Assembly: GCA_964460485.1 (NCBI GenBank)
Contig: CAYWRY010000002.1
Span: 4,243-68,242 of the forward strand
Reading direction: 5' to 3'
Source: an uncultured Spirochaetales bacterium
GTDB lineage: Bacteria > Myxococcota_A > UBA9160 > UBA6930
DNA length: 64,000 nucleotides
The notes beneath the pieces are model-generated. The model was not told where the DNA came from and did not search any database. It saw only the letters and a list, made by a program, of their open reading frames with translations. A program made the translations under genes and the position numbers. This document shows, in pieces, positions 2,511-33,651 of this stretch (positions are counted from its first letter, which is position 1; the number at the start of each line of letters is the position of its first letter).

Positions 2511-4495
2511 TGGCCCACCTCGCCGCGCCCACCGGAGCCTCCCTCGAGGGCCGCGTCCGGCTCGTCGCGGTGCTGGTCGTGCTGCTGTTCGGCGGCTTCG
2601 TCGTGCGCCTGTTCCACCTGCAGGTCGTCGAGGGCGAGACGCTGCGCCAGCGTTCGCAGAAGAACTCGATCCGTCACGTGGATCTCGATGCCCCGCGCGG
2701 CGAGGTGCTCGACCGCGAGGGCCGCGTGCTCGCGACCTGGCGCCCATCGCGCGCCCTGCGCGTGATCCCGAACGACCTGCACGACCGCGCGCGCACCTTC
2801 GCCGCGCTCGGCCAGCTGCTGGGCCTGCCCGGCCCGGAGCTCGACGCCGAGGCGGGGCCGTCGACGGGCCTGGCGCGGTTCCGCCCCGTCACGCTGGTCG
2901 ACGATCTCGACTGGGAGCGGCTCGCGCGCGTCGAGTCGCACGGCTACGCGCTCGCCGGCATCGAGACCTTCGAGAAGCCGCGACGCTTCTATCCGAGCGG
3001 TCCGCTCGCGGCGCACTTGTTGGGGACGCTGGGCGAGATCCAGTCCGCGCAGCTCGCGCGGGAGCACTACGCCGGCTATCGGCAAGGCGAGGTGATCGGT
3101 CAGACCGGCCTCGAGGCGCGCTTCGAGACGCACCTGCGCGGCGTGTACGGAAGGCGCGACGTCGTCGTCGACGCGGCCGGCCGCGAGATCGAGCAGCTGC
3201 GCGAGCTGCCGCCGGCCCTTGGCGGGCGCGTCGTGCTCGCTCTCGACCGCGATCTCCAGGAGCAGGCGGAGGCCGGCTTCCGCGACGTGCCCGAGGGCGA
3301 GCCCGAGCGCATGGGCGCTGCGGTCGCCCTCGACGTGCGCACCGGCGACGTGCTCGCGCTCGCGTCGTTCCCCAACTACGACCCGAACGTCTTCTCGTCG
3401 CGCATCGATCGCGATACCTGGCGCGCACTCACCAGCGACGAGTGGAAGCCGCTGCGCGATCGCGCGATCCAGAACCACTACCCGCCGGGGTCGACGCACA
3501 AGGCGGTGATGGCGGCCACCGCGCTCCAGGAAGGCGTGATCGACGCGAGCACGCGCGTCTATTGCCCAGGTTACTACTACTTCGGCGGCCGCCGCTTCGG
3601 CTGCTGGAAGAAAGAGGGCCACGGCACCGTCAACGTGATCCAGGCGCTGCAGCGCTCCTGCGACGTGTTCTTCTACACCGTCGGCGTCGAACTGGGCATC
3701 GACCGCATCGCGAAGCACGCGTCGAGCTTCGGGCTCGGCGACTTGACGGGCATCGACCTGCCCGGCGAAGTGACGGGCATCGTGCCCAGCTCGGAGTGGA
3801 AGCTGCGGCGCTTCAAGGAGAAGTGGTACCCGGGTGAGACCGTCTCGGCGGCGATCGGCCAGAGCTACAACCTCTACACGCCTCTCCAGCTCGCCGTCTC
3901 CTACGCGGCGATCGCCAACGGCGGGCGCGTGATGAAGCCGCGCCTCGTGCTGAGGCTCGAGGACCGCGACGGCAAGACCGTGCAGGCGTTCGATCCCGAG
4001 GAGCGCGAGCACGCGACGGTCTCCGCCGCGAATCTCGCGATCGTGCGCGAGGGGCTGACGGCGGTGGTCGAAGTTGCCGGCGGCACCGGCTCGCGAGCGA
4101 GAGTGCCGGGCGTTCGCGTCGCCGGAAAGACGGGCACGGTGCAGGTGGTGAGCCTCGATCGCGTGCGCAGGATGCGCGAGGAGGACATCCCGGTGCGCTT
4201 CCGCGACCACGCCTGGTTCGCCGCGTTCGCACCGGCCGACAGCCCCGAGATCGCGGTGGCGGTGTTCGTCGAGCACGGTCTGCACGGCAGCAGCGCAGCG
4301 GCGCCGATCGCGCAGCGCGTGTTGGCGAAGTACTTCCAGAAGCGGGGCCTGAGCCCGATCCCCGACGCGCAGCCGCCGCCGCGCGCGCCGCAGCACCCCG
4401 CGCCGCTGCCGCGCCTGCAGCAGGCGGCCGTGCCGGTGTCGCTGCCGCCCGGCGCAGGCGCGCCGGCGGCCGTCGCCGGAGGCGCGCAGCCGTGA
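2510..4495 (+). CDS. mrdA: Penicillin-binding protein 2 (elongasome transpeptidase)
   Basis: ATG at 2510 overlaps the mreD stop (TGATG). N-terminal TM anchor. Transpeptidase motifs GSTHK (SxxK) and KTGT (AGKTGTVQV). It is the C-terminal part of ORF 1946..4495. Confidence 0.9.
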   Translation: MAHLAAPTGASLEGRVRLVAVLVVLLFGGFVVRLFHLQVVEGETLRQRSQKNSIRHVDLDAPRGEVLDREGRVLATWRPSRALRVIPNDLHDRARTFAALGQLLGLPGPELDAEAGPSTGLARFRPVTLVDDLDWERLARVESHGYALAGIETFEKPRRFYPSGPLAAHLLGTLGEIQSAQLAREHYAGYRQGEVIGQTGLEARFETHLRGVYGRRDVVVDAAGREIEQLRELPPALGGRVVLALDRDLQEQAEAGFRDVPEGEPERMGAAVALDVRTGDVLALASFPNYDPNVFSSRIDRDTWRALTSDEWKPLRDRAIQNHYPPGSTHKAVMAATALQEGVIDASTRVYCPGYYYFGGRRFGCWKKEGHGTVNVIQALQRSCDVFFYTVGVELGIDRIAKHASSFGLGDLTGIDLPGEVTGIVPSSEWKLRRFKEKWYPGETVSAAIGQSYNLYTPLQLAVSYAAIANGGRVMKPRLVLRLEDRDGKTVQAFDPEEREHATVSAANLAIVREGLTAVVEVAGGTGSRARVPGVRVAGKTGTVQVVSLDRVRRMREEDIPVRFRDHAWFAAFAPADSPEIAVAVFVEHGLHGSSAAAPIAQRVLAKYFQKRGLSPIPDAQPPPRAPQHPAPLPRLQQAAVPVSLPPGAGAPAAVAGGAQP

Positions 4496-5610
4496 TCGCG
4501 ATCGACCGGCGCGCCTTCCAGCACTTCGACTGGCCGCTGCTCGCGCTGATCCTCGCGATCCTGGCGATCGGCTTCATGAACCTGTTCTCGACGACGCAGC
4601 CGTTGCCGCCGCCGTCGGTCGGCGTCGCCGCCGAGTTCAAGACGCAGCTCGCCGCCCTCGCGCTCGGCGCGGCCGGCATGATCGCCGCGATCGTCGTCGA
4701 CTACCGGCGGCTCGAGCGCGGCGCGCCACTTCTCTACACGCTCGCCCTCGCGGGCATCGCCGCGACTGTGCTGTTCGGCGTCGAGATCCGCGGCAACAAG
4801 TCGTGGCTGAAGCTCGGCCCCCTCTCCATCCAGCCGGCGGAGTTCGCGAAGCTCGGCCTGATCGTGATGCTGGCGCGCTACTTCCATCGCCACCCGCCGG
4901 GCGAGATGCGGCGACTGCTCGACCTGTTCGTGCCCGGCTTCCTGCTGGCGCTGCCCGTCGGTCTCATCGTGCTCCAGCACGACACCGGCGTGGCGGTGCT
5001 CACGCTCGCGATCGGCGCGACCTTCTTCCTCTTCGTCGCGTTGCCCTGGCGCACCTGGGCGATCCTCACGGTGATCGCCGCCGCGGCTGCGGTCGGCGCC
5101 TGGGAGTTCGGCCTCAAGCCCTATCAGCGCGAGCGCGTGCTCTCGTTCGTGGGCGCCGGCAGCGGCGACGCGCTCGGCTCCGATTACCAGGCCATCCAGT
5201 CGCGCATCGCGGTCGGCTCGGGAGGGCTCGCGGGCCAGGGTTGGCTCGCGGGCCCGCAGAACCGCGGCCAATTCCTGCCGACCCAGCACTCGGACTTCGC
5301 GTTCTCCGTGCTCGCCGAGGAGTGGGGCTTCGCAGGCAGCGCGACGCTGCTCGTGCTCTACGCGGGGCTCTTGCTGTGGGGCCTCGCGATCGCGGCCAAC
5401 TCGAGGGACGGCTTCGGCGGCATGCTCGCGGTGGGGGTGGTCAGCATGCTGCTCTGGCCAGCCGTGATCAACGTGGCGATGGTGCTCGGGCTCGCGCCCG
5501 TGATCGGCGTTCCGCTCCCGCTGGTCAGCTATGGCGGCTCCCAGCTGCTCGCGAACTTGGTCGCGCTCGGGCTGCTGCTGAACGTCTCGATGCGGCGCTA
5601 CGTGTTCTGA
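4492..5610 (+). CDS. rodA: Peptidoglycan glycosyltransferase RodA (SEDS family)
   Basis: GTG overlaps the mrdA stop (GTGA). About 10 TM segments. Has the SEDS C-terminal motif GVPLPLVSYGGS. Confidence 0.9.
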   Translation: MIAIDRRAFQHFDWPLLALILAILAIGFMNLFSTTQPLPPPSVGVAAEFKTQLAALALGAAGMIAAIVVDYRRLERGAPLLYTLALAGIAATVLFGVEIRGNKSWLKLGPLSIQPAEFAKLGLIVMLARYFHRHPPGEMRRLLDLFVPGFLLALPVGLIVLQHDTGVAVLTLAIGATFFLFVALPWRTWAILTVIAAAAAVGAWEFGLKPYQRERVLSFVGAGSGDALGSDYQAIQSRIAVGSGGLAGQGWLAGPQNRGQFLPTQHSDFAFSVLAEEWGFAGSATLLVLYAGLLLWGLAIAANSRDGFGGMLAVGVVSMLLWPAVINVAMVLGLAPVIGVPLPLVSYGGSQLLANLVALGLLLNVSMRRYVF

Positions 5611-5737: not shown

Positions 5738-6060
5738 TAGAGCACGCGCTGCACCAGCTCCTCGAACGCGCTCTTGGGCCGCGCGCCGGTGATCTGGCCG
5801 ACGACGGTGCCGTTCTTGAAGGCGAGCACCGTCGGAATCGCGCGCACGCCGTACTTGCCGGGCGTCGCGGGGTTCTCGTCGATGTTCATCTTGACGACCT
5901 TCACCTTGCCATCGTACTGCGCGGAGAGGTCTTTCACGATCGGCGCGATTGCGCGGCACGGAGCGCACCACTCGGCCCAAAAATCGATCACGGTCGGGAG
6001 TTCCGACTTCAGCACCTCGGATTCGAAGTTCGCGTCGGTCACGTCGATGATGCCTGCCAT
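5737..6060 (-). CDS. trxA: Thioredoxin
   Basis: 107-aa product with the WCAPC active site (FWAEWCAPCR) and thioredoxin-fold motifs. ATG at 6060 is preceded by CAGGAGAG. The rest of ORF 5737..6651 is upstream read-through. Confidence 0.95.
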   Translation of the reverse strand: MAGIIDVTDANFESEVLKSELPTVIDFWAEWCAPCRAIAPIVKDLSAQYDGKVKVVKMNIDENPATPGKYGVRAIPTVLAFKNGTVVGQITGARPKSAFEELVQRVL

Positions 6061-6328
6061 CGCGGCTCTCTCCTGGGTAGGGCGTCGGTGGTCGCTGCGC
6101 GCTCGCCACAGATGTGCGAGCGCGCCGGAACGTCGCAAACCGACGCCGCAGGCGCCCGCACTTCTGCGCGCGATCGCGCGGCGTGCGGCGCGGCCACTCG
6201 CGCACGGCAAGCGCCGCGCACGTAGCAGCGGAGGGCACCGATCGTTACCTTGCGCGAGCTTCGATCTCCTCGATTTCACTCGGGTTTTCGCGACGCCGGC
6301 ACGCGAGCCCGGCTCGAGAGTCCGCCGC

Positions 6329-12411: not shown

Positions 12412-12520
12412 GGGAAGGCTCGTCGCGTGAGTCCGCAGCCGCAGCGCGCCCCCGGCCCCGCCGCGGCTGCTCGTGCCGGGTTCGCCCCCGCGCTCGTCGC
12501 GGGTGGGGAGGGCGCGGATC

Positions 12521-12541
12521 GGCGCGCCCTGCGGGCGCGCC
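12521..12541. terminator. GC hairpin downstream of hemB (GGCGCGCCC-TGC-GGGCGCGCC)
   Basis: Perfect 9-bp stem with a 3-nt loop, 110 nt after the hemB stop. There is no U-tail. Confidence 0.3.
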
Positions 12542-12639
12542 TCCCGCGCGCTTCGCGAGTTTCGCGGATGGGTGGATTGCGGCGGGTCGTGGCGTGGCGC
12601 GGCTCAGGCGGTGTGGTCGCTCAGACGAGAAGGTCGTTC

Positions 12640-20244: not shown

Positions 20245-20414
20245 GCGCGCGGCGGCGGGCCGGGGGCTGCTGCGCCGACTGGCTCGCTCGGCCCGCCTCC
20301 AGGATCTGCTTGGCGGGCGCCTGGCCACGATGCGTCGTCGCTCGGGCGTGAATTCTCGCGGGGCCTCGCTGCGCTCGATGTCGGCTCCGCAGCCCCCGGC
20401 CCGCCGCCGCGCGC
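20245..20414. repeat. Long hairpin element A: perfect 26-bp inverted repeat around a 118-nt structured core
   Basis: 20245-20270 (GCGCGCGGCGGCGGGCCGGGGGCTGC) is the exact reverse complement of 20389-20414. A second stem pairs 20274-20279 with 20380-20385. It is homologous to 32052-32214 in the opposite orientation. Confidence 0.85.
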
Positions 20415-20450
20415 TCGCCGTTGTGCCGAGCGACTGCGGGGTGGGACGGC

Positions 20451-20483
20451 GACGGCTTGGCGGCATCGAGCCGCCAAGCCGTC
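20451..20483. other. Perfect 14-bp-stem hairpin (GACGGCTTGGCGGC-ATCGA-GCCGCCAAGCCGTC)
   Basis: Exact inverted repeat with a 5-nt loop. It lies 36 nt after element A and 72 nt before the polA ATG. It could be a terminator or a regulatory structure. Confidence 0.6.
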
Positions 20484-20554
20484 GTTACGGGGCGCGGTGG
20501 CTCGGTCGTGCCTTCGAGCACGGGTCGTTCGCGCGTTCTCGAGATGCGCATGCG

Positions 20555-29366: not shown

Positions 29367-30550
29367 TACGGTCCTCCAGGAATCGGCGTCGCCGGCGGCT
29401 CGGCGGGCGCCGCGGGATCGAAACCCTTTTCGCGGCTTGCGTAAACCCAGCGCGGGGTCTTCGCGAGCTGCACGGCCAGCGCGGAGATCTGCTCGTCGAT
29501 CCAGTGAGGGTTCGCGGCGGCGCGGCGCGCAGTCTCGCTGGCCAGATACTCGTCGGTCGCCGGCCCGGCGCCGTAGTACTTCCGGTAGACGTCGAAGCGG
29601 AACAACGCCTTCAGCCGCTTCAGGTCGTGCGGCCCGGTCGGCAGCGGCAGCAGCGCCACGTCCTGCTTGCCGCGCTGCTCCCGCTCGTCGAGGCGCGAGA
29701 GCACGACGTCGAGGCTCGTGGCCAGGTGCTTCTCGTCGCAGAAGGTCTCGAAGTCGTCGTAGAGCAGCTTGATCACCGCGCGGGCCTCCTCGAGCTGAAC
29801 CCGCGCTTCGCGCTCGCGCCCCACGCGCCGCAGCAGCAGCACGAACGGGTGCGGGCGGTCGCCGGTCGCGGCGATCTCGGCGGTCGGCCGAAAATCGGGT
29901 TGGCGATAGGGAAAGTGTCGCGGGTCGATCGCGTCGAAGCCGCCGCGACCGTAGAAGAGCAGGCGTTGCAGCGAGAGCTTGTCCTCGGGGCTGAAGTACT
30001 CGACCTCCGCCGCGAGGTCGATGCGCATGCCGTAGTGCTTGTGCGGTGCGTCGGGCTCGGGGAGCACGATCTTCCCGCGCTGGTGCAGCAGGTGCAGGTA
30101 CGTGATCGCGAGGTCCATCGGCGCGATGCGCAGCCAGTAGGTGAGCACGGTGCCGCGCGCGTCGGGCGCCATGAAGATGTGCGAGAGGTAGACGACGCAC
30201 AGGTCGGCGTCGTAGTGCTGATTCACCAGCACGCGGCCGTCGCGCACGCCGCGAATCGCTCCCGTCGCACGGTCGCGCGCCACCAGCAGGAAGAAGCGCG
30301 CGAAGCCTCCGTCCGGCATCGCGTCCGTGGGATCCTCGAGCATCATCTCGCGGATGGTGGCCTCGGACTCCATCTCGCCGGCCGGCCCGAAGGCGTCCCA
30401 CAGCATCCGGTAGGCGGCCGCGAAGTCGGGGTGGTCCGGGTGCTCGATCGACTCGACCTCGTACTTTCGCGTCTCGCGCTCGATCATCTCCACGATGTCC
30501 TGCGCGTAGAGATCCTTCAGGCAGAGGCGGACGTGGGTGCCGAGGCTCAT
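29366..30550 (-). CDS. Hypothetical protein, divergent GNAT-like paralog of 33796..34617 with a C-terminal extension
   Basis: It shares with the 33796 gene the block PY.QPDFR...PF.L.LRRVGRERE. Its stop TAG shares one base with the potA GTG. Start is ATG 30550 or ATG 30487. Confidence 0.6.
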   Translation of the reverse strand: MSLGTHVRLCLKDLYAQDIVEMIERETRKYEVESIEHPDHPDFAAAYRMLWDAFGPAGEMESEATIREMMLEDPTDAMPDGGFARFFLLVARDRATGAIRGVRDGRVLVNQHYDADLCVVYLSHIFMAPDARGTVLTYWLRIAPMDLAITYLHLLHQRGKIVLPEPDAPHKHYGMRIDLAAEVEYFSPEDKLSLQRLLFYGRGGFDAIDPRHFPYRQPDFRPTAEIAATGDRPHPFVLLLRRVGREREARVQLEEARAVIKLLYDDFETFCDEKHLATSLDVVLSRLDEREQRGKQDVALLPLPTGPHDLKRLKALFRFDVYRKYYGAGPATDEYLASETARRAAANPHWIDEQISALAVQLAKTPRWVYASREKGFDPAAPAEPPATPIPGGP

Positions 30551-31898
30551 GACCCGCGCAGAGTACGGTGTGACCGTGACGAGTGACCAGCACGAAGACG
30601 CGAATCGCTCGGTGTGGACCGCCGAGTCCGAGGCTCCGCGTCCGGTGGCCCCGCTGGCGGGCCGCGCGCGCGCCGACGTCGCGATCGTCGGCGGCGGTCT
30701 CACCGGCGTATCCACCGCGCTGCACCTGCGCCGCGTGCGGCCCGAGCTGGGCATCGCGCTGCTCGAGGCCGGCGTGCTGGGGCAGGGCGCCAGCGGCCGC
30801 AACGGCGGGCAGGTGCTGCACTGGATCAACGGCGTGTCGCCGAAGGACGACGCCGAGCTGCGGCGCAATCACGCGGCGACCGGGCTCGGCATCGACATCG
30901 CAGAAGAGCTCGCCGCGAAGTACGCGCCGGGCGCATTCCGCCGCGCGGGCGCCCTCGAGGTGCTCACCGACGCGCGCCGTGCGCAGGAAGCGCACGCGCG
31001 CGCCGAGCGCTGGAGCGCGGCGGGCGTGCCGGCCGAGTTCGTGCCCGCGAGCCGCCTCGGCATCGCCGGTGCGCACGGCGCGCTGCGCAATCCGCTCGCC
31101 GGACGCCTCAACGGCTTCGCGCTGCTGCAGGCGCTGCGCCCCGCGCTCGTCGCCGAAGGCGTCGCGCTCTTCGAACGCTCGCGCGTGCTGCGCATCCGCG
31201 GCGGCGGTGAAGTCGCGCTCGAGACCGCGGGCGGCGAGCTGCGCGCGCGCACGCTCGTGCTCGCCACGAACGGCTACACGCCCGCGCTCGGCTTCTTCCG
31301 CAGCGGCGTGCTGCCTCTGCACTCCCACGCCCTCGCCACCGCGCCGCTCGCGGACGCGGATTGGGCGCGCCTCGGCTTCGGCGCCTGGGACGGCTTCAGC
31401 GACGACCTCGACCGCATCGCCTACGCCATGCGCACGCCCGGCGGCCGCCTGCTGCTCGGCGGCGGCGGCAACGCGGCCTACACGTACCACTACGGCAGCC
31501 GCGTGGTGGCGAGCGAGGCCGCGATCGCGCGCGCGCAGCCATTCCTCGAGCGAACGCTGCGCGGCTACTTCCCGGGCGTCGCCGGAGTGCCGATCTCGCA
31601 TCGCTGGTCCGGCGTGCTCGCCATCACCCTCGACCGCCAGCCCTCGATCGGCGCCGGCCTCGTCGCGCCGAACGTGATGCACGGCCTCGGCTACAGCGGC
31701 CACGGCCTCGCGCTCGCGCTCCTCGCCGGCCGCGTGCTCGCCGACGTCTACGTGGGCAACCCCGACCCGTGGCGCGATCTCGCCTTCTTCAACAAGCGCC
31801 TCCTCCCCATCCCCCCGGAGCCCCTGCGCTGGCTCGGTTATCAGGCCTACACCCGCCTCACCGGCAGAAGCCCGCGCAGGCATGCGCGCATCACGTGA
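30549..31898 (+). CDS. FAD-dependent oxidoreductase, PuuB (gamma-glutamylputrescine oxidase)/DadA-like
   Basis: Dinucleotide fold DVAIVGGGLTGVSTAL and GASGRNGGQ as in PuuB, plus the C-terminal GYSGHGL. The start is ambiguous (GTG 30537, ATG 30549, GTG 30570). Confidence 0.85.
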   Translation: MTRAEYGVTVTSDQHEDANRSVWTAESEAPRPVAPLAGRARADVAIVGGGLTGVSTALHLRRVRPELGIALLEAGVLGQGASGRNGGQVLHWINGVSPKDDAELRRNHAATGLGIDIAEELAAKYAPGAFRRAGALEVLTDARRAQEAHARAERWSAAGVPAEFVPASRLGIAGAHGALRNPLAGRLNGFALLQALRPALVAEGVALFERSRVLRIRGGGEVALETAGGELRARTLVLATNGYTPALGFFRSGVLPLHSHALATAPLADADWARLGFGAWDGFSDDLDRIAYAMRTPGGRLLLGGGGNAAYTYHYGSRVVASEAAIARAQPFLERTLRGYFPGVAGVPISHRWSGVLAITLDRQPSIGAGLVAPNVMHGLGYSGHGLALALLAGRVLADVYVGNPDPWRDLAFFNKRLLPIPPEPLRWLGYQAYTRLTGRSPRRHARIT

Positions 31899-31959
31899 CG
31901 AGCGCGGCAATCCGCTCGTTGGCGATCGAGCACGGCCGTCGCACGGGCGAAGCCTGACT

Positions 31960-31984
31960 CGCCGGCGCCTCGAAGGCGCCGGCG
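31960..31984. terminator. Terminator-like hairpin after the oxidase gene (CGCCGGCGCC-TCGAA-GGCGCCGGCG)
   Basis: Perfect 10-bp stem with a 5-nt loop, 62 nt after the stop at 31898. Confidence 0.5.
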
Positions 31985-32051
31985 ATTCACCCTCCCAACT
32001 ACCGACTCGTCGACGCAGCCCCGCACGCGAAGCGTGACCCTCGCGCGCCGT

Positions 32052-32214
32052 CCGACGCGGGCCGGGCGCGGGGCGCGGAGCCGGCATCGAGCGCAGGAGC
32101 GACCCCCAGACCCGGTGAGTCTTCAGAACACGCGCGCCCCGTCTCTCCGGTGGTCCCCTCCAGAGGGTCGCTCCGAGCCGGCCGGCGCAGCGCCCCGCGC
32201 CCGGCCCGCGTCGG
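32052..32214. repeat. Long hairpin element B: perfect 25-bp inverted repeat around a 113-nt structured core
   Basis: 32052-32076 (CCGACGCGGGCCGGGCGCGGGGCGC) is the exact reverse complement of 32190-32214. An inner 10-bp stem pairs 32096-32105 with 32165-32174. The inner flanks are homologous to element A in reverse orientation. Confidence 0.85.
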
Positions 32215-32286
32215 GCACCCCCGCCGTTCCAGGTTCCACACGCCCTCGCGCTGGCGCCGCGTCCCGCGCAGTGCTGGGATACGCCC

Positions 32287-33651
32287 ATGTCCACCGCATT
32301 CGACCTCGCCGAGCTGCGCCGCCTCGACGCCGCCCACCACCTCCACCCCTTCACCGACCACGTCGCCCTGCACAAGCAAGGCACCCACGTGATCCGCTCC
32401 GCGAAGGGCTGCACGCTCGTCGACGAGACGGGCCGCGAGCTGCTGGACGGCCTCGCAGGCTTGTGGTGCGTGAACATCGGCTACGGGCGCGACGAGATCC
32501 GCGCCGCCGTCGACGCGCAGATGCGCCAGGTCGCCTTCTATCCGTCGTTCTTCAATACCTCGACGGAGCCGACCATCCGCCTCGCCGCGCGCCTCGCGGA
32601 GCTGGCGCCGCGCGGCCTCGGGCACGCAATCTTCTCGAACTCGGGCTCCGAGGCGAACGAGACCGCGCTGAAGCTCGCGCGCGCCTACTGGAAGCTGCGC
32701 GGCAAGCCGGAGAAGAAGAAGGTGCTGTCGCGCACCTACGCCTATCACGGCGTGGGTCTCGCGACGACGAGCCTCACCGGGTTGCCGAGCTGCCTCGACC
32801 CGTTCGACCTGCCGCTGCCCGGCTTCATCCACGTGCCCGGCCCGCTCGCCTACGGCAGCGAGCTCTCGCCGACCGATTACGGGAAGTGGTGCCTCGAGCA
32901 GACCGAGCGCGCGATCGCGCGCGAAGGCGCGGGCGAGATCGGCGCGATGTTCGTCGAACCGATCCAGGGCGCGGGCGGCGTGATCGTGCCGCCGCCCGGC
33001 TACCTCGCGCAGCTGCGGGAGCTGTGCCGCCGCCACGAGATCCTGTTCGTCGCGGACGAGGTGATCACGGGCTTCGGTCGCCTCGGCGCGTGGTTCGCTT
33101 CGGAGCTGTGGTCGCTGGATCCGGACCTGATGACCGTCGCGAAGGGAATCACGAGCGGCTACGTGCCGCTCGGCGCCACGCTCGCGCGCGACGAGATCGC
33201 GGAGACGCTTGCGACGGGCGGCTACCTCGCCCACGGCTTCACCTACACGGGGCACCCGGTCGCGTGTGCGGCCGCGCTCGCGAACCTCGACGTGCTCGCG
33301 AAAGAGAAGCTCGTGGAGCGCGTGCGGGACGACGTGGGGCCGCGCTTCCAGGAGCGGCTCGCGAAGCTCGGCGCCCACCCGGCAGTGGCCGAGACGCGAG
33401 GCTTCGCGCTGATCGGCGCGTTCGAGATGCGCCGTCCGCCGCGCGGCCCGCTCGCGAATGCCGGGCCGAACGCCCTCGGGCCGGCGATGCACGCGCTCTG
33501 CCGCGAGGAGGGCGTGATCGTGCGCGGCATCCGCGACCTCGGCGCGATGTCGCCGCCGTTCGTGGTGACGCACGCGGAGCTCGACGAGATGTTCGCGCGC
33601 ACGGCGCGGGCCCTCGACCGACTGTGGGCGGGCGAGATCGCGAAGGGCTGA
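32287..33651 (+). CDS. Class-III aminotransferase, SpuC-like (putrescine/omega-amine:pyruvate aminotransferase)
   Basis: Co-linear with P. aeruginosa SpuC by eye: HHLHPFTD, GLWCVNIGYGR, SGSEANE, EPIQGAGGVIVPP, DEVITGFGR, and the PLP-Lys in TVAKGITSGY. Confidence 0.9.
   Translation: MSTAFDLAELRRLDAAHHLHPFTDHVALHKQGTHVIRSAKGCTLVDETGRELLDGLAGLWCVNIGYGRDEIRAAVDAQMRQVAFYPSFFNTSTEPTIRLAARLAELAPRGLGHAIFSNSGSEANETALKLARAYWKLRGKPEKKKVLSRTYAYHGVGLATTSLTGLPSCLDPFDLPLPGFIHVPGPLAYGSELSPTDYGKWCLEQTERAIAREGAGEIGAMFVEPIQGAGGVIVPPPGYLAQLRELCRRHEILFVADEVITGFGRLGAWFASELWSLDPDLMTVAKGITSGYVPLGATLARDEIAETLATGGYLAHGFTYTGHPVACAAALANLDVLAKEKLVERVRDDVGPRFQERLAKLGAHPAVAETRGFALIGAFEMRRPPRGPLANAGPNALGPAMHALCREEGVIVRGIRDLGAMSPPFVVTHAELDEMFARTARALDRLWAGEIAKG

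Follow-up and report, generated by a model that had tools for sequence, protein, structure and literature searches.

The REP/BIME and REPIN elements (RAYT/TnpA_REP; E. coli, Pseudomonas) are extragenic and non-coding, and their palindromes fold into long hairpins in ssDNA or mRNA. They lie mostly after genes and inside operons, classically at binding-protein/permease sites, join other short motifs into mosaics, and persist vertically over long periods with gain and loss; REPs are short imperfect palindromes with a conserved GTAG-type head. REPINs consist of two inverted halves that make a long hairpin, with invariant terminal 16-mers and a variable spacer; their genomes contain tens to hundreds of similar copies and a single-copy RAYT (Y1 HUH) gene with repeats on its flanks. 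When transcribed, REP/BIME and Correia hairpins serve as 3′ barriers or processing sites. The Correia (NEMIS, Neisseria) and ERIC/IRU (enterobacteria) elements are intergenic repeats of 100–160 nt with arms of ~26 bp, whose long hairpins, if co-transcribed, influence how mRNA is processed and how stable it is (RNase III or RNase E); Correia copies are near-identical, with conserved terminal inverted repeats and a TA duplication. IS200/IS605-derived PATEs are asymmetric, carry a hairpin close to either end and have a strand-specific orientation, conserved hairpin mismatches and short direct motifs ~10 nt outside the hairpin feet; they lack whole-unit terminal inverted repeats and a consistent target duplication, and they insert 3′ of a fixed 4–5-nt target in genomes with a TnpA gene. 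MITEs are small and non-coding, have terminal inverted repeats at the unit ends and a target-site duplication around each copy, and are polymorphic for presence between related genomes. Compensatory changes across the REPIN hairpin have been reported (PMC3116915). Template switching has been reported to create and maintain hairpins (PMC8794818).

The locus described here, element B, lies in a 388-bp spacer between a DAO-family FAD oxidoreductase gene (30549–31898) and a class-III aminotransferase gene (32287–33651) of the window, by which we mean the whole 64-kb stretch of DNA that was analysed (72% G+C). It is probably a copy of an undescribed dispersed palindromic repeat family of uncultured Myxococcota, similar to REP/BIME/REPIN or to IS200/IS605-derived elements, and not a dedicated regulator of the aminotransferase. 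The parts of B, of its homolog A and of a third, truncated copy in the window (“C”) are as follows.

32052–32214, minus strand (the family orientation): big hairpin of B, 163 nt; nhmmer with the family profile, E = 1.6e-32
32052–32076, unstranded: first arm of the B outer stem, in perfect 25-bp pairing with 32190–32214; G+C except for one A:T pair
32190–32214, unstranded: second arm of the B outer stem, partner of 32052–32076
32077–32096, minus strand: conserved inner-right motif of B, CTGCGCTCGATGCCGGCTCC; 19/20 against A 20369–20388
32096–32105, unstranded: arm of the B inner 10-bp stem, GGAGCGACCC; 10/10 pairing with 32165–32174
32165–32174, unstranded: partner arm of the inner stem, GGGTCGCTCC, pairing with 32096–32105
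32174–32189, minus strand: conserved inner-left motif of B, TGCGCCGGCCGGCTCG; 14/16 against A 20271–20286; contains the other helix-2 arm
31986–31999, minus strand: G-rich box of B, GTTGGGAGGGTGAA (minus strand), with an equivalent box in every copy
31955–31989, minus strand: small hairpin of B, core TCGCCGGCGCC-TTCGA-GGCGCCGGCGA; shows covariation and scores 49.1 bits with covariance model R1
20245–20414, plus strand: big hairpin of A, 170 nt, with a 26-bp perfect outer stem
20438–20449, plus strand: G-rich box of A, preceding its small hairpin
20450–20484, plus strand: small hairpin of A, with a 15-bp perfect stem and the loop ATCGA
about 12431–12553, plus strand: truncated copy C, after the ALAD stop codon; weak R1 match

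An independent scan recovered the perfect 25-bp outer stem given in the preliminary description of this DNA, and the inner 10-bp stem pairs throughout as it had stated. An inverted-repeat search extended the arms to 34 nt (32052–32085 and 32181–32214), 94% complementary with the outermost 25 bp perfect; the CTGCGCTCGATGCCGGCTCC stretch contains the pyrimidine-pyrimidine mismatches beside the outer stem and the helix-2 arm GCCGGC. As RNA the B region folds at −126.2 kcal/mol (z = −6.8; none of 200 shuffles as stable), and as ssDNA the whole unit folds with z = −5.6 in a shuffle test. The big hairpin of A, which starts 24 nt past a TetR stop codon, folds with z = −6.5. Treating 31960–32214 as a single hairpin element was right as to the hairpin but overlooked both the G-rich box and the small hairpin at 31955–31989, which is the second structured module of the unit.

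B aligns to A solely as its reverse complement, with TGCGCCGRCYGGCTCG and CTGCGCTCGATGYCGGCTCC as common motifs, and the proposed reverse-oriented homology was borne out by the inner flanks (14/16 and 19/20). The two are nevertheless diverged: whole units are 60% identical and their flanks are unrelated. The centres, described as unrelated in sequence, are not wholly so, as TGAAnnCTCnCnGGG is common to both. The outer arms have diverged yet remain self-complementary, as had been reported; in ungapped register they match at 15/25 positions, about chance for G/C-only sequence, while each stem is perfect (26 bp in A, 25 bp in B), and no other arms in the 64-kb window are perfect over at least 25 bp. 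B carries a 4-nt insertion relative to A in both arms. The compensatory change in helix 2 (GCCGAC/GTCGGC in A, GCCGGC/GCCGGC in B) was also found again, with a third version, GGCGGC/GCCGCC, in copy L086a and TC·TC-type mismatches in others. Copy C is what remains of an L086a-like unit, with the linker, G-box, small-hairpin region and right arm of its big hairpin still present; compared with L086a, the left arm and interior (about 145 nt) have been deleted.

Loci of close aminotransferase and polA orthologs were examined in nine related uncultured Myxococcota genomes; these ~200 kb and the 64-kb window make up ~266 kb of non-redundant clade DNA. The loci hold eight further full copies, ten with A and B, and one stand-alone small module.

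L078a and L078b: NCBI MAG GCA_964501435.1
L081a and L081b: one genome, 430-kb ENA contig
L083a, L086a and L092a: further full copies
L180a: outgroup, polA 76–78% identical

The full unit is ~245–270 nt long and its module order is identical in all ten full copies. A leader of ~16 nt resembling GCTYGWKCGGRRNCC precedes a big hairpin of 160–190 nt, whose basal stem is perfect in seven copies (26, 26, 26, 26, 26, 25 and 39 bp) and imperfect in three: L180a is interrupted by a bulge and a T·T mismatch, and the other two by one or two C·A mismatches. Just inside the basal stem stands a conserved asymmetry, TGC on the left and TCC on the right, which produces T·C and C·T mismatches; further inward are a short second helix, conserved unpaired motifs (left TGGCTCRCTCGGCCC, right GGGGCCTCGCTSCGCT; TGGCTCRC... 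/ ...CTCGCTSCGCT...) and a variable apex. In B, the exact complement of the conserved right motif stands where the left unpaired motif of the family was, giving the 10-bp inner stem in a region that is a conserved unpaired loop in the other copies. The conserved TGC/TCC asymmetry and the conserved unpaired motifs argue for recognition as a single strand. The 3′ part of the unit comprises a linker starting TCGYCG, a GGGAGG-like box (GGAG core in 9/11 copies) and the small hairpin of 11–16 bp, with a different stem in each copy and a conserved WTYGA loop.

Covariance model R1, built on the G-box and small hairpin, recovers 10/10 units and almost nothing else in the 266 kb; its sole other match is the stand-alone module (L080:4261–4314), directly after an aminotransferase stop codon. 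Because R1 matches are almost confined to units, the small hairpin belongs to the unit, and the idea that it is a generic terminator merely co-occurring with the big hairpin was ruled out. Reading the G-rich box as the Shine–Dalgarno sequence of a small ORF was likewise rejected, with no conserved start codon or ORF downstream. Six copies have a GCGCTCGAT-like motif 31–35 nt from the big hairpin's 3′ end, and some leaders and trailers repeat it ~10 nt outside the hairpins; these motifs are suggestive of putative cleavage or recognition sites.

Whole-unit identity between copies is 60–83%. The most similar pair, L081a and L081b, comes from the same genome, has identical 26-bp stems and is 83% identical, which fits copying inside one genome. 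The density of about one unit per 26 kb in the 266 kb examined would extrapolate to hundreds per genome, with copies only 60–83% identical.

The mirrored stem differences first described between A and B extend to all ten full copies. Over the innermost 25 bp per arm in nine copies, within-copy complementarity is 98.7% (222/225), the three non-standard cells being two C·A and one C·T. Left and right arms of different copies match at 55.8%, about chance for G/C-only sequence, and basal stems of different loci are alike at 7–23 of 25 positions, being identical only in L081a/L081b. This within- versus between-copy contrast is independent of column registration. In an ungapped arm alignment 98.5% of cells are paired, against 59.7% in shuffles (0/500 as high), and 24 of 25 basal pairs have changed on both sides, with no one-sided change and no G-U among 200 basal-stem cells; the columns are registered by the hairpin itself, so a “double change” is only as good as the positional homology between diverged copies. 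Indels (4 nt) are mirrored on the two arms like the substitutions. Of the 15 pairs of the small hairpin, 10 have changed on both sides, and none of 500 shuffles reached the observed score. Neither random decay of the arms nor a recent segmental duplication, the two outcomes that the preliminary description had set against its own reading, was found, because the units are only 60–83% identical and their stems are still complementary.

At all six independent sites (after TetR, RNase HII, ALAD, SBP, permease and aminotransferase genes) the unit starts 9–73 nt past a same-strand stop codon, in the order gene, big hairpin, G-box, small hairpin. The neighbours of the family are unrelated to one another (TetR/polA, RNase HII/TruD, ALAD, ABC-transporter genes), and in 8/9 units the sense fold is more stable than the antisense one. 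B is the exception to the orientation rule: it is antisense to both neighbouring genes and lies upstream of the aminotransferase, 72 nt from its start codon, in a spacer that is the largest gap within the 21 kb having gene calls. Copy L083a lies 25 nt past the stop codon of an aminotransferase gene that converges on an oxidase gene, between the two. L080 shares this convergent gene order, and the two genes are co-directional in the window and L077. B and L083a are placed and oriented alike with respect to the oxidase gene; the aminotransferase block therefore appears to have been inverted, with a breakpoint adjoining B, which put B upstream of and antisense to the aminotransferase. Downstream of B, a proximal box, GCTGGCGCC-N11-GTGCTGGGATA-N5-ATG (window 32249–32286), accompanies the aminotransferase in all genomes.

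The window strain was found in four JGI metagenomes at 99.98–100% identity, with an identical spacer, and the named homologs of the B-flanking proteins come from Myxococcota or “Deltaproteobacteria” MAGs. The identified window genes are all housekeeping genes (mreB, mreC, PBP2, rodA, hemD, ALAD, polA, cytochrome genes); no transposase, reverse transcriptase or integrase is among them, and the fetched loci gave no transposase Pfam match. A 300-aa ORF beside L081b was considered as a candidate transposase and dropped, having only a weak FkbM methyltransferase match.

Occupied and unoccupied sites could be compared across the clade, which is star-like (polA 82–92% identical), with filled and empty sites distributed patchily.

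Oxidase–aminotransferase spacer: filled in the window (388 bp, B); empty in L077/L081, the closest relative (66 bp)
After ALAD: filled in L086 and L180, remnant in the window; empty in L081, L083, L089, L091 and L092
RNase HII–TruD: filled in L081 only; empty or different in the other genomes
SBP–permease: filled in L078 only; 7 nt in L077 and 62 nt in the window
After TetR: filled in the window, L081 and L092; empty or different in L082, L083, L086, L089 and L091

Units are dispersed over seven or more unrelated intergenic sites, and occupancy differs even within the sister pairs L083/L089 and L092/L091. At the empty ALAD sites the spacer is 19 nt in L081/L083/L089 and 32 nt in L091, and the genes overlap in L092. 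Because empty sites lack the small hairpin too, the whole composite unit is the entity inserted or deleted. We also considered, and rejected, an older target hairpin (the outer arms) into which a core had been inserted; empty spacers are 0–19 nt long and hold no hairpin. Filled spacers contain other short recurring modules, giving a BIME-like mosaic. The flanking-repeat test revealed no consistent target-site duplication across copies; a flanking direct repeat in excess of shuffles was seen in L078a alone (9 nt, 6/300). Some sites look as if they were inherited vertically over deep divergence, the ALAD site being filled in the outgroup L180 and in L086 and retaining a remnant in the window.

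Searches outside the clade gave no further members. Exact scans with CTGCGCTCGATGYCGGCTCC, a motif later found to be specific to one sub-variant, returned 19 genome-contig and 53 metagenome-contig matches at chance level, mostly in unrelated and often coding sequence and none with the rest of the element, and viral contigs scanned with better motifs contained no family members. Rfam gave no match at the gathering threshold in the window, and permissive thresholds gave only chance-level matches (E > 1) at both loci. Scans for sigma-70 promoters and terminators at the A and B loci found none. Full-text literature searches found no description of such a repeat in myxobacteria. Retron msr-msd and integron attC elements were also considered and dropped, as no locus contains a reverse transcriptase or integrase.

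We file the family among the bacterial interspersed palindromic repeats, where it is distinguished by stem perfection combined with free drift, conserved internal loops and a second conserved hairpin. It resembles REP/BIME and REPIN in being a non-coding extragenic palindrome with a long hairpin, in its compensatory changes, in its location mostly after genes and inside operons (L078a occupies the classic binding-protein/permease site), in its mosaics and in its long vertical persistence with gain and loss. It differs from them in lacking the GTAG-type head, in having a variable basal stem and conserved internal loops where REPINs have invariant ends and a variable spacer, in the asymmetry of a unit that includes a second small hairpin and a G-rich box, and in the much greater divergence of its copies (60–83% identical); no RAYT was seen in ~266 kb. 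With PATEs it shares the asymmetric unit, the hairpin near each end, the strand-specific orientation, the conserved mismatches, the short direct motifs ~10 nt outside the hairpin feet and the lack of whole-unit terminal inverted repeats and of a consistent target duplication, an architecture that is consistent with, and goes no further than consistency with, such an origin. Unlike in PATEs, the two hairpins are very unlike in size and sequence; the leaders share GCTYGWKCGGRRNCC, but no conserved 4–5-nt target emerged, and a Y1 transposase was not found in the examined DNA.

Correia and ERIC/IRU elements are similar in being intergenic, in arm length and in their long hairpins, but here the arms differ between copies and no duplication was seen. 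The presence/absence polymorphism, small size and non-coding nature are those of MITEs, but the unit runs past the big hairpin to the small hairpin, and its two ends are not inverted repeats of one another. Intrinsic terminators combine a hairpin with a U-tract, and there are 0 terminator-like sites at the A and B loci and no T-run after the small hairpins. A riboswitch or other cis-regulatory leader is conserved upstream of its gene in a fixed orientation, whereas the element is absent in L077, L078 and L080 and lies at the 3′ end in L083. Quasi-palindrome template switching (PMC8794818, PMC5941160) explains, each as a single event, the mirrored substitutions, the mirrored 4-nt indels and the zipping of the B inner loop into a 10-bp stem, and yields Watson–Crick pairs exclusively; it is a mutational mechanism and not an element family, and leaves the conserved mismatches, the loops and the dispersal unexplained.

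Since the family is dispersed, its sites are filled in some genomes and empty in others, and the syntenic spacer is empty, B is best read as a REP/BIME/REPIN-like element and not as a polyamine regulator. The unit would be recognised and propagated, or would persist, in single-stranded hairpin form; this could be ssDNA at the replication fork, acted on in trans by an HUH-type enzyme, or 3′-UTR RNA. Constraint would then fall only on the pairing and on the unpaired motifs. Arm-to-arm templated copying (quasi-palindrome template switching) would produce the mirrored substitutions and the mirrored 4-nt indels, and selection for the hairpin would then act as a filter that removes copies losing their pairing. 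A transcribed unit may form a 3′ hairpin barrier or processing site like those of REP/BIME and Correia elements. B itself would be a diverged copy that local inversion brought upstream of and antisense to the aminotransferase. Several observations speak against a mobile element: no transposase or RAYT was seen in ~266 kb, target-site duplications are not consistent, the whole unit has no terminal inverted repeat, the copies are old and diverged, far from near-identical, and the motif scans of genome, metagenome and viral collections yielded no more of them. An RNA function could account equally well for the sense orientation after stop codons, and persistence at the ALAD site suits host selection on an RNA no less than mobility.

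The main rival, which is compatible with the mobile-element reading and does not exclude it, is a vertically inherited, host-beneficial 3′-UTR RNA module with selection on RNA structure and with dispersal either ancient or incidental. We regard it as possible, if unlikely to be the better description. The sense orientation 9–73 nt past the stop codon at 6/6 independent sites suits it, as do the covariation of two helices with conserved loop and internal-loop sequences, the same-site persistence after ALAD (L180, L086, window remnant) and after TetR (window, L081, L092), and the more stable sense fold in 8/9 units. The unit is dispensable, however, as sister genomes lack it at the same sites; a U-tract or consensus terminator is absent, Rfam has no matching family, and the B stems are perfect despite their antisense position to both neighbours. 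The absence of G-U or one-sided changes (0/200 basal-stem cells) would also be unusual for covariation at the RNA level. In such a module the big hairpin would stop exonucleases or be cut by RNase III, and the small one would be a terminator lacking a U-tract or would offer a loop for protein binding.

More tentatively, the units may be the substrate of a specific, co-evolving trans-acting partner and be kept vertically at gene 3′ ends for a host function, with the perfect, wobble-free stems of 25–39 bp resulting from active arm-to-arm correction and not from ordinary compensatory evolution. Candidates for the partner are a domesticated HUH-type enzyme, as in REPIN–RAYT, or a protein that binds or processes RNA and recognises the conserved internal loops together with the WTYGA loop.

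A palindrome acting at the level of duplex DNA, through protein binding or as a cruciform (e.g. a nucleoid, gyrase or recombinase site) and without a single-stranded or RNA role, is improbable. Stems that are Watson–Crick only, with no wobble pairs, and that B keeps whatever the direction of transcription would be expected of it, and the inversion breakpoint adjoins the element; but the conserved mismatches and the large asymmetric unpaired interior would be invisible in duplex DNA, and the strong orientation bias relative to genes is unexpected for a duplex site. Cruciform extrusion is moreover disfavoured by the spacer of 106–132 nt between the perfect arms.

The preliminary description implied polyamine-responsive regulation of the aminotransferase operon, and this was not supported. 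A gene-specific, possibly polyamine-responsive cis-regulatory hairpin controlling the SpuC-like aminotransferase operon might be suspected from the position of B in a 388-bp spacer upstream of the gene, with 72 nt between it and the start codon, and from the related L083a, which also adjoins oxidase and aminotransferase genes. It is nonetheless very improbable: the syntenic 66-bp spacer of the closest relative (L077/L081), with an aminotransferase 90% identical, holds no element, and none lies ahead of the gene in L078 and L080 either, where the proximal box is retained. The same family stands beside unrelated genes, A and B are opposite in orientation relative to the downstream gene, and the L083 copy lies at the 3′ end of the aminotransferase, not the 5′ end. 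A chance G+C-rich inverted repeat, of which short ones are common in a 72% G+C window, or a recent segmental duplication of A with gene conversion can be dismissed with near certainty, given that 0/200 shuffles fold as well, that perfect stems of at least 25 bp occur in A and B alone in 64 kb, that A and B are 60% identical as whole units with unrelated flanks, and that homologs exist among the loci of nine other genomes.

The mobile palindromic repeat that we favour has practical consequences. Such hairpins are not to be taken as gene-specific regulators, and in MAGs the units account for several oversized intergenic spacers and for spurious ORF calls, e.g. L086 2027–2425. The family comes from a phylum in which no family of this kind had been described and is an unusually extreme example of a palindromic repeat, with stems ~98% complementary while their sequence has drifted to near-random similarity. 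It thereby provides a natural setting in which to ask whether selection or templated self-correction preserves long hairpins.

A third copy of the palindromic repeat family in the window, lying 3' of the ALAD stop codon, is truncated: its big hairpin is reduced to the right arm, with the linker, G-box and small-hairpin region still in place, and has lost the left arm and interior (a deletion of about 145 nt) relative to the unit at L086 1928-2174 in a related uncultured Myxococcota genome. The half-deleted copy shows both that the palindrome is prone to deletion and that the site after ALAD already carried a unit ancestrally. The L086 unit is also overlapped by a publicly annotated 132-aa gene (L086 2027-2425). 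This call joins the repeat to a real downstream gene of 59 aa (DUF4177-like) and is probably an annotation artefact arising from the G+C-rich repeat. The features considered here in the window and in the related loci (L-numbers) are as follows.

Features of the window and of related loci
Window 12431-12553: third family copy, truncated
L080 4261-4314: G-box and small hairpin alone, overlapping the aminotransferase stop codon
Window 32249-32286: conserved box GCTGGCGCC-N11-GTGCTGGGATA-N5-ATG, immediately 5' of the aminotransferase start codon
Window 20369-20377 and 32088-32096; L078 ~6103-6111 and ~5828-5836: GCGCTCGAT-like motif
L081 9002-9904; L091 9292-9918; L092 9173-9796: extra DNA in the TetR-polA spacer
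L082 3359-3634; L083 9744-10000; L078 ~4470-4500 and ~6100-6135: recurring short spacer modules

The module in L080 has no big hairpin; its small hairpin is a 16-bp perfect stem closed by the loop AGCGA, and the module scores 36.9 bits with R1, the covariance model of the G-box and small hairpin. Either this is what remains of a unit, or the module is used here independently.

Oxidase and aminotransferase gene order varies among the relatives (window 30549-33651; L083 19978-22724; L080 2910-5692), the two genes being co-directional in the window and in L077; in L080 and L083 they converge. At the junction between them lies the repeat element or its small module, which may therefore mark, or have mediated, the inversion breakpoint. 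The box preceding the aminotransferase is also found in L077, L078 and L080 regardless of what lies upstream; it probably represents the promoter, operator or ribosome-binding region of the aminotransferase gene itself, and is independent of element B, the big hairpin of the neighbouring window copy.

Within the big hairpins, the GCGCTCGAT-like motif is fixed at 31-35 nt from the 3' end in six copies. L078a, a full family copy, is in addition flanked by a 9-nt direct repeat resembling this motif, one repeat lying 9 nt ahead of the stem and the other 13 nt beyond the small hairpin, and the trailers of B and of the full copy L081b hold similar motifs. The motif may serve for recognition or cleavage, or represent a target that was duplicated.

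The TetR-polA spacer of the relatives is a hot spot of extra DNA, with a length of 48-1336 bp across genomes; in L081 it holds an ORF of 300 aa that weakly matches FkbM methyltransferase, and in both L091 and L092 a GST gene. In the outgroup, L180 5261-5428 forms a hairpin directly 3' of the Usp stop codon, in which a perfect stem of 22 bp (CTAGGAGCCCGACCCAAGATGG) encloses an interior of 124 nt; geometry and position are as in the family, and the sequence is unrelated and not G+C-only. Further short modules, such as TCGAAGACTCGCGGC...CTGCGCGCTTCGCTTGCG, are repeated across the intergenic spacers of these related genomes, and several types of repeat seem to be combined in these spacers as mosaics.
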